The notes under the pieces: model-generated
Database searches by the model: none
The model's input: only the letters and a program-made list of their open reading frames with translations
What the model was told of the DNA's origin: nothing
Shown: positions 2,989 through 26,735 of the stretch, in pieces
How positions within the stretch are numbered: the stretch's first letter is position 1
Layout of the letters: every line of letters begins with the position of its first letter
Program-made: the position numbers and the translations under genes
Source of the DNA: Abditibacterium sp.
GTDB lineage: Bacteria > Armatimonadota > Abditibacteriia > Abditibacteriales > Abditibacteriaceae
Reading direction: 5' to 3'
Assembly (NCBI GenBank): GCA_965246885.1
Contig: OZ251992.1
Location: 640,001 to 704,000 of the forward strand
Length of the DNA stretch: 64,000 nucleotides

Positions 2989-3969
2989 TTATTGAAGGGC
3001 CGAGTCATATAGTCGTGCCATCACGCGGCTTTGGCGGGCGGCTTCTTCAATTGTCACCAGTTCCGCCTCCTGCCCTTCCAATTTGTTCCAAAACAAATCG
3101 AAGGCGTGCGCTTTGCCGTCCGGTAGGTCGTGCCACTGCCCGCCATCGGCGCCTTCGACTTCCTCCGAGAAATAAAAGACCTTCTCATCGTGCACGAGAA
3201 TCTGCCCGCGCGTGCCGTGCACTTCAACGGGCGCCGAGTATTTCGGGTCAACCCAGCCCGCTTCGATAATGGCCACCGCGCCTTTCTCGAACGTCACCAT
3301 GCCCGCGCCCCATTCGTCTATATCGCCATAGCGGTGCGTCGCGCTTCCCACTGTCGCGGCAGTTTTGACGGCTTCGCCGCACGTTGGCACGAGACACCAT
3401 AGCGCGATGTCGAGGGAGTGCGCGCCCAAATCGGCGTAACCGCCGCCGCCCGCTTCGGTCTTGTCGGCAATCCAGCGCCACTCCGAATCGAACCAGCCCG
3501 CGAGCGACCCCTCATGGCAGTTCGTGTGGCGCATCCGGGTGACGACGCCCAGATGCCCCGCCTCGATTTCGCGTTTGATGAACAGGTTCGATGGCATACC
3601 ACGCATGAAAAAGCCGGTTTGAAAAGTGACGCCCGCCGCTTTGACGGCGGCTTCGATGGCGTCCGCGTCTTCTTCGCTTGTAGCCAAAGGCTTTTCGATG
3701 AACAGGTGCTTGCCCGCCTTCGCCGCGCGCGTGGCCAGTTCGCGGTGGTGGCACGTTTCCGAGCAGATGACGACGGAAGTGATTTGCGGGTCGGCCAAAA
3801 TCGCGTCGAGGTCGGCGACTTGCGCGTCCAATTGCGCCGCGCACCGTTGCGCGCGCGCGGCGTCGTGGTCATAGACATACTTGACGGAAACATCGGGTCG
3901 CTTGTTGATGGTCGCCACGAAGCCGGGAGTGTGGATGTGGGCGACGCCCAGAAATGCGGTAATTTGCAT
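2989..3969 (-). CDS. Gfo/Idh/MocA family oxidoreductase
   Basis: AGKHLFIEKPLA, GGGGYADLGAHSLD motifs; start set at MQITAF. Confidence 0.9.
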   Translation of the reverse strand: MQITAFLGVAHIHTPGFVATINKRPDVSVKYVYDHDAARAQRCAAQLDAQVADLDAILADPQITSVVICSETCHHRELATRAAKAGKHLFIEKPLATSEEDADAIEAAVKAAGVTFQTGFFMRGMPSNLFIKREIEAGHLGVVTRMRHTNCHEGSLAGWFDSEWRWIADKTEAGGGGYADLGAHSLDIALWCLVPTCGEAVKTAATVGSATHRYGDIDEWGAGMVTFEKGAVAIIEAGWVDPKYSAPVEVHGTRGQILVHDEKVFYFSEEVEGADGGQWHDLPDGKAHAFDLFWNKLEGQEAELVTIEEAARQSRVMARLYDSALQ

Positions 3970-8379: not shown

Positions 8380-8394
8380 ATTAAACTGGGCGCT

Positions 8395-21776: not shown

Positions 21777-22619
21777 ATGAATTTCGTTCGTCTCGTTTTG
21801 CCAGTCGCCGCTGTCTGGGGCGCCTCGTCGTGCGCCCAGTCTGCACCAAAAGTCGTCCAAGTCCCACACAACGCCTCCGCTCCAGCGTCCGCCAAGGCGA
21901 CTCCGGCCAAGGTGAAGTTGTTTGACGCCCACGAGCACCAATGGCAAGGCACCGGCACCAAGCGCACCCGCCCGCGCTTCGGCGTTAAAGGCAAGAACGG
22001 CTTCTTTTTCACGTCGGGCATGACCATTGACGCCGACGGAAGCCCGCGCGCGTTCAACCGCGTCTCCTCCAAAGGCTTGGACGACCTCCAAAACGCGGGG
22101 CACCCCGGCAACTGGTGGGGCATCATGACAAACAACGGCGAAACATCGGGCCGCCCCATCATGCAACGCAAAGGCGACCCGGCGCCCGGTTTTTATATCT
22201 CCCAAACCGGCCTCGAAGACACCAGCAAGCGCGAAACCGACCCGAACCGCTACGTGGATGCCGAACGCGTGCCCTACATTGTCCTGAGCGGCACCAAGAA
22301 GCAGAACATGGACGCCCAATTTGGCGACTACGCCGTCGTGCTCAACAAAGCCAACGGCAAATACGCCTTTGCGCTGTGCGGCGACGAGTGGCCCGAAGTC
22401 AAAATCGGCGAAGGCTCCATCGCCCTCGCCAAAGCCATCGGCGTTCCCGCCGACCCGCGCGACGGCGGCGTGGACGACGGCATCGTCTATCTCATCTTCC
22501 CCCACTCGCGCCGCACTCCTTGGCACGCGGGCGAAACCCTGAAGCAAACCGATGCCGCCGCGCAAAAAGTCTTGGACGCCTGGGGCGGCATCGAGCAACT
22601 GCGGGCGCTGGCGAAGTAA
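21777..22619 (+). CDS. Glycoside hydrolase family 75 (chitosanase-like), exported
   Basis: MTIDADG, YVDAERVPYIVL, GD..P...IGEGSIALA motifs; N-terminal signal or lipoprotein-like leader. Confidence 0.75.
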   Translation: MNFVRLVLPVAAVWGASSCAQSAPKVVQVPHNASAPASAKATPAKVKLFDAHEHQWQGTGTKRTRPRFGVKGKNGFFFTSGMTIDADGSPRAFNRVSSKGLDDLQNAGHPGNWWGIMTNNGETSGRPIMQRKGDPAPGFYISQTGLEDTSKRETDPNRYVDAERVPYIVLSGTKKQNMDAQFGDYAVVLNKANGKYAFALCGDEWPEVKIGEGSIALAKAIGVPADPRDGGVDDGIVYLIFPHSRRTPWHAGETLKQTDAAAQKVLDAWGGIEQLRALAK

Positions 22620-22676
22620 GGCTCCGCTTAGTCAATTCTCTATCCAGCGCACGCGGCGCCCCTTAAACTTCTACCC

Positions 22677-22934
22677 ATGATCGAGAACTTTGGCGACCTG
22701 CCGCCCGAAGAACGGGCGCGCTTGGTGGTGGAGGAGCGGCGGGGCATCGAGCGGAGCAACGAAAGGATGCACGTTCAGGCTGAGGGAATGCGCGCGCAAA
22801 ATGAACAGCTGCGGCGGTTGCTCGAAGAGCGGCGAACGGTGCTGGCGCGCTTGCGCGAAGTGGCGGCGGGGTTGTTAGCCGAAGATGAGCGCATCGGGCG
22901 CGAAGTGGCGCGGGTGCTAACTAAGACACCATGA
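22677..22934 (+). CDS. Small coiled-coil protein coupled to HNH gene (module 1)
   Basis: 85 aa, E/R/L-rich heptads; stop overlaps HNH ATG (ATGA). Confidence 0.65.
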   Translation: MIENFGDLPPEERARLVVEERRGIERSNERMHVQAEGMRAQNEQLRRLLEERRTVLARLREVAAGLLAEDERIGREVARVLTKTP

Positions 22935-23401
22935 CCCACGAAGAGCGTGAGCAGACGCGCGCCCGGTTTAGTTTCGCGTGCGGTTACTGCGGCGTGAGCC
23001 AAACCCTAAGCGGGGCCGCCCTCACGTTTGATCATTTTCAGCCCAATTCACGCGGCGGAGCTAACGAAGAAGCTAACTGGGTCGCGTGTTGCCACGCTTG
23101 CAACGAGTTCAAAGGCGCATATTGGCCCGCAACGCCAGAACAACATCCCTTGCTTCATCCAGAGCGTGACGTTTGGGGTGAACACCTGCACGAAGGCGGT
23201 TTGGGAGAACTGGAAGGCGCCACACCTCGCGGAGTCTTTCACATCGCGCGCCTTCACCTCAATCGGCCAGAGCTAATCGCGCATCGCCTTTTTCTCCGGG
23301 AAGTCGCGCGCGAGCAAGCCGAGCGGCAAGCGATCTTCGAGGAACTACGCGCGGTAGCGGAAGAAGTAAACCGACTACGCCTCCAAATCGAGGGGACATA
23401 A
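22931..23401 (+). CDS. HNH endonuclease (McrA-like zinc-binding), module 1
   Basis: CGYCG, DHFQPNSRGG, NWVACCHACNEFKG, C-terminal coiled coil. Confidence 0.88.
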   Translation: MTHEEREQTRARFSFACGYCGVSQTLSGAALTFDHFQPNSRGGANEEANWVACCHACNEFKGAYWPATPEQHPLLHPERDVWGEHLHEGGLGELEGATPRGVFHIARLHLNRPELIAHRLFLREVAREQAERQAIFEELRAVAEEVNRLRLQIEGT

Positions 23402-23402
23402 C

Positions 23403-23578
23403 AAGCCCCGCGTGCATCGCACGCGGGGCTGTAGTGTAACCGGGGCCGGGCTTAATACATGCCGCCCATGCCACCCATATCGCCGCCACCGCCGCCCATC
23501 GGGGCGGGGTTCTTTATCAAGCTCGCAATCGAAGCGGCGTTTTGCGGCGCCGAGCGCGTCACTTTCACGGGGCCAACA
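23403..23578 (-). pseudogene. Duplicated, diverged groEL 3' end plus terminator
   Basis: Encodes [39 protein letters not shown], matching the groEL C-terminus with a 12-codon deletion; hairpin AGCCCCGCGTG...CACGCGGGGCT matches 24952-24980. Confidence 0.9.
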
Positions 23579-23604
23579 ATGTTGGCACGACTTAAACTAA
23601 AGGT

Positions 23605-23829
23605 ATGGAACAAGTTCACATAACCATCGAAGAACAGGACGCGCGCTTGGAAGAGGCGACAAAGCAACTCGACGCTCAAATCGAGGCAAAACGTGAGCGG
23701 GTGCGGCAGTTGGAAGAACTTGTGGCGGCTCAACGCGACTTCCAGCGCGAGTTGGAACAAACCCTCGCCCACTTGCGCGGAAAGAACCAGATGCTACGCC
23801 AAAAGAAGGATTCTCTCTTGGCTCGATGA
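23605..23829 (+). CDS. Small coiled-coil protein coupled to HNH gene (module 2)
   Basis: 74 aa heptad-rich; ATGA overlap with the following HNH gene. Confidence 0.65.
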   Translation: MEQVHITIEEQDARLEEATKQLDAQIEAKRERVRQLEELVAAQRDFQRELEQTLAHLRGKNQMLRQKKDSLLAR

Positions 23830-24293
23830 CCACACACGAACAAGACGAACTGCGGGCGCAATTCGATTTTCGATGCGGCTACTGCGGCGTGAGTGAAGTA
23901 TTTGCTGGCGCGGTTTTGCACTGCGATCACTTCCACCCGACTTCGCGCGGTGGGCCGGATGACGCAAGCAACTGGGTGTATGGTTGCGTGGCTTGCAATG
24001 GGTTTAAAGGTGCCTACTGGCCACGCAACGCGACCGGGTTATCGCTTTTGCACCCATTCCGCGATGACTTGTCGCTTCACATCCGCGAAGAGAACGGAAC
24101 GTTCGTCGGTCTTTCGCCGCGCGGCCACTTCCACATTGAATTGTTGCACCTCAACCGCGCACCTCTTGTGCGGCATCGCCAAAAACTGGTCGATGACCGC
24201 AAAGTGGAGGAGCGCATCCGGGAACTCAAACTTCAAGTCGAAGCGGGCAGCGAAATCATCGCGCGTTTGTTGGAGCAGATGGACGAGTTGTGA
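23826..24293 (+). CDS. HNH endonuclease, module 2 (paralog of 22931-23401)
   Basis: CGYCG, DHFHPTSRGG, NWVYGCVACNGFKG, LHLNR, C-terminal coiled coil. Confidence 0.88.
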   Translation: MTTHEQDELRAQFDFRCGYCGVSEVFAGAVLHCDHFHPTSRGGPDDASNWVYGCVACNGFKGAYWPRNATGLSLLHPFRDDLSLHIREENGTFVGLSPRGHFHIELLHLNRAPLVRHRQKLVDDRKVEERIRELKLQVEAGSEIIARLLEQMDEL

Positions 24294-24324
24294 ACCGGAC
24301 TCTCATTAAGGAAGAAACAAACTG

Positions 24325-24927
24325 ATGCCTCACCCACGATTCGGCGTTGAGTTCGCCTTGACTGATGTGACTTGGTTCGCTCCTAACGCGCCCAAACCCC
24401 GGTTCGGAATTGACTACGCCAGCCAAGATCAAGAGGTTCGCGTCGGGGACGAAATTTGGATTTATTTGGCCAGTTACTCTCCTGCGCTCGCCCAATTCTT
24501 GAGCCTGCCTTTTTGGGCGCTGTTTGAGCATTGGACGACCCACATCAACGGCTTCAGCGATGCACCGGAGAACTTGGATAGAATGCGATTGGTTTTGTGC
24601 AAGCCGATTCCCGAATCGTCCGGCGACGAGCAGAAAAACCTCTTTTCGGTTCGTTGTTTGGAAGTTTTGGCGATTGACGAGATTCCCGCTCGCTTTGCTT
24701 TCAACGAGGAGCCACTCATTTTGGATTTGACGAGTCCACACGACCGAGTCAGCCAAATCTTCAAGTGCCCACAATTCACAATCTATGCTGGTGGTCAGGA
24801 AGGAATTGTTTGGTATTGGATAGTTACGAATCAAGAGCCACATCTGTTGGTAACCTATGGCTTCTTTCTCGAGCGCCACGACAAATGGGAAATTTGCAAT
24901 CGCCCTTTCATCTTGAAAAACGGCTAA
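24325..24927 (+). CDS. Hypothetical protein, visibly more AT-rich than flanks
   Basis: 200-aa ORF with AAGGAAG RBS; no recognisable motif. Confidence 0.6.
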   Translation: MPHPRFGVEFALTDVTWFAPNAPKPRFGIDYASQDQEVRVGDEIWIYLASYSPALAQFLSLPFWALFEHWTTHINGFSDAPENLDRMRLVLCKPIPESSGDEQKNLFSVRCLEVLAIDEIPARFAFNEEPLILDLTSPHDRVSQIFKCPQFTIYAGGQEGIVWYWIVTNQEPHLLVTYGFFLERHDKWEICNRPFILKNG

Positions 24928-24949
24928 TCTTGGGTTAACCAGCCAAACG

Positions 24950-24980
24950 AAAAGCCCCGCGTGTTACGCACGCGGGGCCT
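24950..24980. terminator. groEL terminator (possibly bidirectional)
   Basis: AAAAGCCCCGCGTG-ttacg-CACGCGGGGC hairpin, U tract on minus strand. Confidence 0.8.
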
Positions 24981-25004
24981 AAGTTTAACCGGCGGGCCGG
25001 GCGC

Positions 25005-26735
<1,731 letters not shown>

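Follow-up and report, generated by a model that had tools for sequence, protein, structure and literature searches.

To our knowledge, PtuB-type HNH nucleases have so far been known only as effectors held by the ATPase PtuA, in Septu and in type I-A retrons. Known targets of PtuB are tRNA or DNA. Passages of two published studies describe the C-terminal domain of PtuB as sandwiched or gripped by the helical C-terminal domains of PtuA (PMC12673091, PMC12475279). Deletion of the C-terminal domain of either PtuA or PtuB is stated there to lower defence (PMC12673091), and dimerisation of the HNH nuclease through PtuB's own C-terminal extension is given as a low-confidence prediction (PMC12475279). 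Here we describe two stacked gene modules from Abditibacterium sp. (Armatimonadota), each consisting of a small open reading frame (ORF) for a helical protein and an overlapping gene for a predicted PtuB-like HNH nuclease. They lie in a 64,000-nt stretch of contig OZ251992.1 (assembly GCA_965246885.1, positions 640,001 to 704,000 of the forward strand), hereafter called the window.

Like Septu (PtuA-PtuB) and type I-A retrons (Ec78/Eco7, Ec83), whose effector is PtuAB, the modules have an HNH effector of the PtuB fold. They have no PtuA ATPase and are therefore placed outside Septu; the upstream gene instead encodes a helical protein of 65-128 aa. The module nuclease is 155 aa long, compared with about 205-258 aa for PtuB chains, and fails the NCBIfam model TIGR02646. 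Unlike type I-A retrons, the modules contain neither a reverse transcriptase nor a non-coding RNA.

Type II toxin-antitoxin systems (Phd-Doc, YefM-YoeB, VapBC) are the second group of relevance. The likeness lies in a small upstream gene that overlaps the gene for an enzyme of ~150 aa, in solitary insertion between housekeeping genes, in a patchy multi-copy distribution with orphan 'antitoxin' copies, and in partners of distant relatives that carry a Phd/YefM-like or HTH_17 N-terminus. The partner in the clade of the modules, in contrast, has no DNA-binding domain. PtuB-type HNH nucleases are not among the type II toxin families known to us, and no such toxin was found in the open-access full text of PubMed Central (PMC) and bioRxiv. 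Colicin and pyocin HNH toxins with their Im immunity proteins also combine an HNH nuclease with a small cognate protein. In colicin operons the immunity gene lies downstream, whereas the gene order of the modules is reversed; the modules also lack a translocation or receptor domain, and their structural matches are to PtuB and not to colicin DNases.

The pair had not been recognised as a named system in the initial annotation, and searches of PADLOC, Pfam, NCBIfam and PHROGs agree, matching nothing beyond the HNH/PtuB domain. In open-access PMC and bioRxiv full text, no account was found of a PtuB-like HNH nuclease whose partner is a small helical protein; subscription journals could hold one. 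The accessible text of PMC10440598, PMC12819146 and PMC13092281 deals with PtuAB or generic HNH proteins only.

The HNH nuclease and its helical partner

The ORF map and the sequence confirm that the two modules have the same layout, in which a helical small ORF runs into the HNH gene through an ATGA overlap. Their elements are the following (positions in the window).

22664..22669, plus strand: TAAACT upstream of small1, 7 nt before the ATG
22677..22934, plus strand: small1, 85 aa, all-helical, putative antitoxin or adaptor; its stop overlaps the HNH1 start (ATGA)
22931..23401, plus strand: HNH1, predicted PtuB-like HNH nuclease of 156 aa with a long C-terminal helix
23593..23598, plus strand: TAAACT upstream of small2, 6 nt before the ATG
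23605..23829, plus strand: small2, partner protein of 74 aa; its stop overlaps the HNH2 start (ATGA)
23826..24293, plus strand: HNH2, predicted PtuB-like HNH nuclease of 155 aa

A six-frame search of the organism's own genome (G000; genomes and loci are cited by our G and L numbers) retrieved a third module 213 kb away, at G000:C1:876214-876878 (L003 1289-1953). This module encodes small3 (71 aa) and HNH3 (150 aa, 49% identity) and lies between rpsA and rpsL/rpsG. The ATGA overlap between small and HNH genes is present in all three modules of the genome. A 104-aa ORF of lower complexity without a family match (L003 953-1267) precedes the third module. A separate HNH protein of 213 aa (G000:C1:719842-720483; L004 1171-1812) matches the HNH core only (profile positions 5-79), is single-copy in many genomes of the phylum and is unrelated to the modules.

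HNH1 and HNH2 share 46% identity (E 2e-45), and their alignment bears out the motifs first quoted as common to both, among them CGYCG and LHLNR. Among the three HNH proteins of the genome, 54 columns are invariant. Both window proteins match the Pfam HNH family PF01844 (38.8 bits for HNH1 and 34 bits for HNH2; threshold 21.4). Their top PADLOC matches are PtuB models (1.4e-9 and 5.4e-13, respectively), and the match of HNH2 covers residues 16-143, well past the HNH core. NCBIfam returned sub-threshold matches only (IscB, Cas9d, TIGR02646), and PHROGs matches are confined to the HNH core. From an alignment of 35 sequences, AlphaFold2 gave a model of HNH2 with a predicted local distance difference test score (pLDDT) of 93.6 and a predicted template modelling score (pTM) of 0.80; the model ends in one long helix (residues 112-154). 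In a Foldseek search of the PDB with this model, the top matches are the PtuB chains of retron Ec78/Eco7, retron Ec83 and E. coli Septu (TMq 0.53-0.64). The label 'McrA-type' given to the HNH domains in the initial annotation is thus imprecise, as the structural matches point to a PtuB-type fold. Across the 35 aligned family sequences, the residues at metal and catalytic positions (two CxxC pairs, DH, N, CN..K) vary little or not at all. On the model and the alignment, the nuclease is a predicted stand-alone PtuB-fold HNH protein whose CxxC...DH...N...CxxCN..K site is intact and whose C-terminal helix spans 43 residues.

One groEL-adjacent HNH gene of a congener (L019/L036 1957-2421) has Ile at the family-invariant lysine of CN..K. 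It possibly encodes an inactivated nuclease whose partner is retained.

The small proteins had been described as different in sequence and alike in character, which was borne out. BLAST detects no similarity between small1 and small2, yet profile comparison connects them: hhalign matches the small1-type profile to the small2/small3 pair with a probability of 78% (E 1.8e-5). Twelve small proteins, from the own genome and related loci, align gap-free over a core of ~75 residues, and the L019 protein combines a small2-like N-terminus with a small1-like C-terminus. The gap-free alignment, the hhalign match and the L019 intermediate indicate that the small proteins form one divergent family. A model of small2 from the 12-sequence alignment is one continuous helix (residues 2-73, pLDDT 95.2). 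In size, the helix protein is close to the C-terminal domain of PtuA; no match to PtuA was obtained with PADLOC at E ≤ 0.1. No fitting family was found in Pfam, PADLOC, NCBIfam or PHROGs, which returned only weak coiled-coil noise. A collection of 5.8 billion proteins contains 32 homologs of the small protein, none with a Pfam domain; those that are named are 'hypothetical', with the exception of two automatic names, FtsB and ElaB/YqjD. In the ESM Atlas, small1 and a 110-aa homolog fall only into unnamed clusters (scores 0.87 and 0.91).

Conservation, selection and decay of the pair

A pattern scan of genome contigs yielded 10 loci (L005-L014) from metagenome-assembled genomes (MAGs) of Pirellulales, Pirellulaceae, Anammoximicrobium, Gemmataceae, Abditibacterium and Chthonomonadaceae and from one Chloroflexia MAG. 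Nine of these (L005-L013) have a helical ORF of 80-128 aa on the strand of the HNH gene that stops where the HNH gene starts. In L014, which differs in architecture, a 365-aa ORF at the edge of its contig has the HNH motif at its end. A hidden Markov model (HMM) built from the 12 small proteins matches the ORF directly upstream of the HNH gene in five loci outside its training set (L017, 1.8e-20; L018, 1.5e-17; L019, 7.5e-15; L020, 1.4e-10; L026, 5.6e-10). L021 and L022, which have end-to-end HNH matches, carry coupled upstream helical ORFs beyond the reach of this HMM. Among the ORFs of at least 40 aa in the own 3.55-Mb genome, the HMM matches only the three HNH-upstream ORFs, all of them training sequences. 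Conservation of an upstream helical ORF had been proposed as a check on the pair, and every intact core-family HNH gene examined, in other Armatimonadota and in Planctomycetota, has a coupled one. No ATPase-sized gene lies upstream in related loci.

Both genes of the pair are, by these sequence comparisons, under purifying selection. Against the orthologs in L008, the ratio of nonsynonymous to synonymous divergence (dN/dS) is 0.109 for small2, 0.108 for HNH2 and 0.175 for small1. Small2 shares 83% amino acid identity with its L008 ortholog, at a synonymous divergence (dS) of 0.79.

Three loci contain an intact small gene whose nuclease partner is lost or broken. In L008, an intact small1 ortholog is present and HNH1 is absent; in L012, HNH is truncated after residue ~66; in L026, it is broken across the second CxxC motif. 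The reverse state was found in no locus. L023 contains an N-terminally truncated HNH gene without a small ORF. Such asymmetric decay suggests a toxin-antitoxin pair, for which it would be the expectation.

More distant HNH relatives, with profile matches spanning roughly positions 3-150, have a coupled upstream ORF in 8 of 8 cases (L021, L022, L024, L025, L027, L029, L031, L032). Two of these distant partners start with a Phd/YefM-like segment (1.2e-5 and 2.5e-4), and one carries HTH_17 above threshold (7.2e-11).

The number of clusters retrieved by a profile search of 1.84 billion representative proteins rises from 109 at E ≤ 1e-30 to 2,068 at E ≤ 1e-10; at E ≤ 1e-3 it is 41,876, and these are generic HNH proteins. 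None of the 150 best representatives shows the offset expected of a small-HNH fusion. Across the own genome and 40 relatives, HNH matches at 1e-10 occur in 29 of 41 genomes, with up to eight per genome and some with internal stops. End-to-end matches are limited to eight (G000, G003, G010, G013, G016, G027, G037, G039). Within the genus, the HNH gene is intact in 3 of 13 genomes and broken in one (G009). In different genomes, a module stands by itself as an insertion flanked by unrelated housekeeping genes, and viral contigs gave one partial match to the HNH core only. The family is rare and so far confined to poorly studied phyla (Armatimonadota, Planctomycetota and Acidobacteriota, as named in the sequence records), which may be why it has escaped description.

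Start signals and the groEL-downstream region

The TAAACT hexamer that had been noted 6-7 nt before both small ATGs does occupy this position, and it is not specific to the modules. TAAACT-N5-8-ATG occurs four times in the window against 0.27 expected (TAAACT at 8382, 22664, 23593 and 45495), and one of the two non-module sites precedes a 532-aa ORF. The whole genome has 418 TAAACT sites. At spacings of 6 to 12, these are followed by an ATG in 15, 20, 17, 14, 13, 10 and 9 cases, respectively, and these ATGs mostly open ORFs of at least 100 aa. Other spacings mostly gave about 2-5 ATGs, with as many as 8 at the far limit of the tested range. This genome-wide enrichment before the ATGs of long ORFs rules out a module-specific signal and identifies TAAACT as a general start-proximal signal of the organism. 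Since it fits TAnnnT, TAAACT probably serves leaderless or short-leader transcripts as a -10-like element, and it supports the view that each small ORF is the putative first gene of a separate transcription unit. In module 3 the hexamer reads TGAACT. A scan with the sigma-70 consensus found no promoter in 22400-25100.

The ORFs flanking the modules in the window are a gene resembling glycoside hydrolase family 75 (GH75), small helix ORFs, ORF200 and groEL. The features downstream of HNH1 and HNH2 are listed below.

23404..23430, no strand assigned: hairpin with a 12-bp stem directly 3' of the HNH1 stop, a duplicate of the groEL terminator
23450..23577, minus strand: groEL 3'-end remnant (last ~38 codons, 36-bp internal deletion), direct repeat of 25003-25166
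24325..24927, plus strand: ORF200, 200 aa, lower G+C, family-less, between the groEL repeats
24952..25166, minus strand: second direct-repeat copy, made up of the groEL terminator and the functional 3' end of groEL
25005-26639, minus strand: full groEL gene (ORF map)

The segment 23403-23577 (~175 bp) duplicates the groEL terminator together with the final ~160 nt of the gene (24952-25166), with identity of 97% (66 nt), 91% (53 nt) and 83% in three blocks and a 36-nt deletion in the remnant. Small2, HNH2 and ORF200 are bracketed by these direct repeats. ORF200 is low in G+C (0.46-0.53; 0.46-0.57 when set against ~0.61 in the flanks). The two window copies have the terminator in one version, which is absent from L008 and L019; this favours an intragenomic or close-relative event over a distant donor; import from a distant donor was rejected on this ground. 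A 106-aa minus-strand ORF (23452-23772) is the groEL remnant extended along the antisense strand of small2, and it is unlikely to be a gene.

ORF200 has no match in Pfam, PADLOC, NCBIfam or PHROGs. In L008 the order is small1', small2', HNH2' and groEL, without HNH1 and without a groEL fragment, and an unrelated 120-aa ORF (3471-3833), whose ATG overlaps the HNH2' stop, occupies the position of ORF200. A variable third gene follows the module. ORF200 is variable cargo, and its membership of the module is doubtful.

Other congeners also vary at this site. G010 carries a single module between groEL and a 39-nt groEL fragment. G004 carries a 3.1-kb insert without a family HNH gene between groEL and a 46-nt groEL fragment. 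The insert (L039 1960-3377, L040 381-1546) comprises a lipoprotein-like ORF, a DUF559-like ORF, a PIN-domain gene (5.2e-12) with a small ORF upstream, and a prepilin-like gene; the DUF559-like and prepilin-like ORFs were assigned by eye, and Pfam confirmed DUF559 only for the counterpart in congener L038. In G009, a Pfam-confirmed DUF559 gene (7.3e-28) and an unassigned ORF lie behind groEL. The groEL 3' flank is, as judged from these sequences, a recombination-prone variable spot in the genus, and this accounts for the two stacked modules. The stacking noted in the initial annotation is thereby reduced to a by-product of the variable region that holds paralogous copies, with no designed or functional tandem. 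No gene-fragment repeats flank the third module.

Further upstream in the window, the segment 21556-21734 contains five copies of a ~32-nt unit at spacings that are multiples of 21 nt, each with the palindrome CAGACGTCTG. These units are intergenic, lie upstream of the GH75 chitosanase-like gene (21777-22619) and resemble an operator array.

Proposed function and alternative explanations

The pair had been put forward as a candidate new toxin-antitoxin or defence system. That it is a conserved, translationally coupled pair holds; the toxin-antitoxin part gains indirect support from the asymmetry of decay and from the distant partners. Also counted in its favour are the conservation, purifying selection and co-inheritance of the pair, the PtuB-type fold, the single-helix shape of small2, the helical grip of PtuA on PtuB as a precedent, and the variable spot behind groEL, which in a congener holds a PIN-domain gene and a DUF559-like ORF. 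We consider that the module has about an even chance of being a type II toxin-antitoxin-like, possibly abortive-infection, bicistronic pair. The TAAACT -10-like element would set the start of transcription at the small ORF or shortly upstream of it. The ATGA overlap, as seen in the sequence, couples translation, so that the helix protein (~70-85 aa) is made together with the nuclease. The helix protein may form a coiled coil with the C-terminal helix of the HNH protein and hold the nuclease inactive or monomeric. By analogy, its role would be that of the three-helix C-terminal domain of PtuA for PtuB in Septu and type I-A retrons. Once the small protein is lost, degraded or displaced, for example during phage infection, the HNH protein would be freed to self-associate and would cut nucleic acid, leading to growth arrest. 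A more specific version, which we hold only tentatively, is an ATPase-less 'mini-Septu', which would make the modules a new family of two-gene toxin-antitoxin or abortive-infection systems. In it, a stand-alone helix protein of ~70 residues would replace the C-terminal claw of PtuA and restrain a PtuB-type HNH nuclease, via a heteromeric coiled coil with the C-terminal helix of that nuclease. The likely substrate of the nuclease is tRNA or DNA, and it would be triggered when the helix protein is released.

Several points weigh against a toxin-antitoxin function. We infer the binding of the small protein to HNH, the inhibition and the toxicity only by analogy. Unlike classical type II antitoxins, neither small1 nor small2 nor any of the 12 aligned small proteins has a DNA-binding domain. 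The modules lie outside any recognisable defence island, and the asymmetric decay rests on three cases and carries no statistic. The Phd/YefM-like matches (25.4 and 21.2 bits) are below the Pfam gathering score of 29.8, and a PDB sequence search with the L024 partner gave no Phd/YefM structure. The hhalign probability between that partner and the small family is 1.9%, so that homology of the partner types is not established. The distance matrices of small and HNH proteins are correlated (Mantel r = 0.81, 13 pairs; reached by 1 of 5000 permutations), a signal that reflects co-inheritance as a unit, comes partly from one orthologous pair and does not imply physical co-evolution. As to the nuclease, the NCBIfam PtuB model TIGR02646 gives 13.9-16.4 bits against a cut-off of 52.15, and Foldseek E-values to PtuB chains are 2.6e-3 or weaker.

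The pair could also be a two-subunit nuclease, in which the helix protein is not an inhibitor but an obligatory structural or activating subunit, such as an oligomerisation scaffold or adaptor. Such a nuclease would act in a DNA or RNA transaction, either repair or a restriction-like defence without toxin-antitoxin logic. The data on conservation, coupling and co-inheritance are compatible with this explanation too, and PtuA, in the account of PMC12673091, is needed for defence and is no pure inhibitor of PtuB. We regard it as unlikely, since small genes remain intact after loss or breakage of HNH in three loci, the L008 small1' is still under purifying selection at its dN/dS of 0.175, which is hard to explain for a mere subunit, and distant relatives have antitoxin-type partners. 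It is very improbable that only the HNH genes are real and that the small ORFs are open merely by chance in G+C-rich sequence. E/R/Q-rich coiled-coil ORFs do arise easily in high-GC sequence, and small1 and small2 lack BLAST similarity; however, position, strand and stop/start overlap are kept across phyla, dN/dS is 0.11-0.18, the HMM is specific within the whole genome, the 32 database homologs were called as proteins, and the helix model of small2 is confident.

The setting beside groEL raises the question of mobility. The modules might be selfish mobile cassettes: a homing-type HNH nuclease would cut close to conserved genes (groEL, rpsL region) and spread through copying during repair, with the small protein as a helper. 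Free-standing HNH homing endonucleases share with the modules the HNH motif, a site beside highly conserved genes (here groEL and rpsA/rpsL) and, at module 2, a duplicated fragment of the target gene: module 2 and ORF200 are bracketed by the groEL 3'-end repeat, and the congener module is followed by the 39-nt groEL fragment. The patchy and sometimes multi-copy distribution (8 of 41 genomes end-to-end; up to 8 matches per genome) would also agree with mobility. Against this, the third module lacks flanking gene-fragment repeats, and the groEL fragment in G004 brackets an insert without a family HNH gene, which indicates that the hotspot is not HNH-specific. The small1/module 2 order is common to L008 at dS about 0.8, an orthologous position that indicates vertical inheritance. 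In contrast to homing endonucleases, the modules have an obligatory partner gene, show the PtuB fold only, with no extra DNA-recognition module found by Pfam or structure, and are not enriched in viral contigs, given the single partial HNH-core match. Other loci lie between unrelated housekeeping genes. On balance, a mobile origin of this kind appears distinctly improbable, more so than the two-subunit nuclease.

A PtuB-fold nuclease with a single-helix protein as its only partner would be the simplest known control module for a PtuB effector. At about 230 codons, the pair is compact and suited to studying how PtuB is restrained and released. As a type II toxin-antitoxin-like pair, the module would add an HNH toxin class to these systems. 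The ATPase-less version, if true, would show that a PtuB effector can be controlled without an ATPase or a retron, and it would point to an evolutionary path that links simple toxin-antitoxin pairs with Septu.

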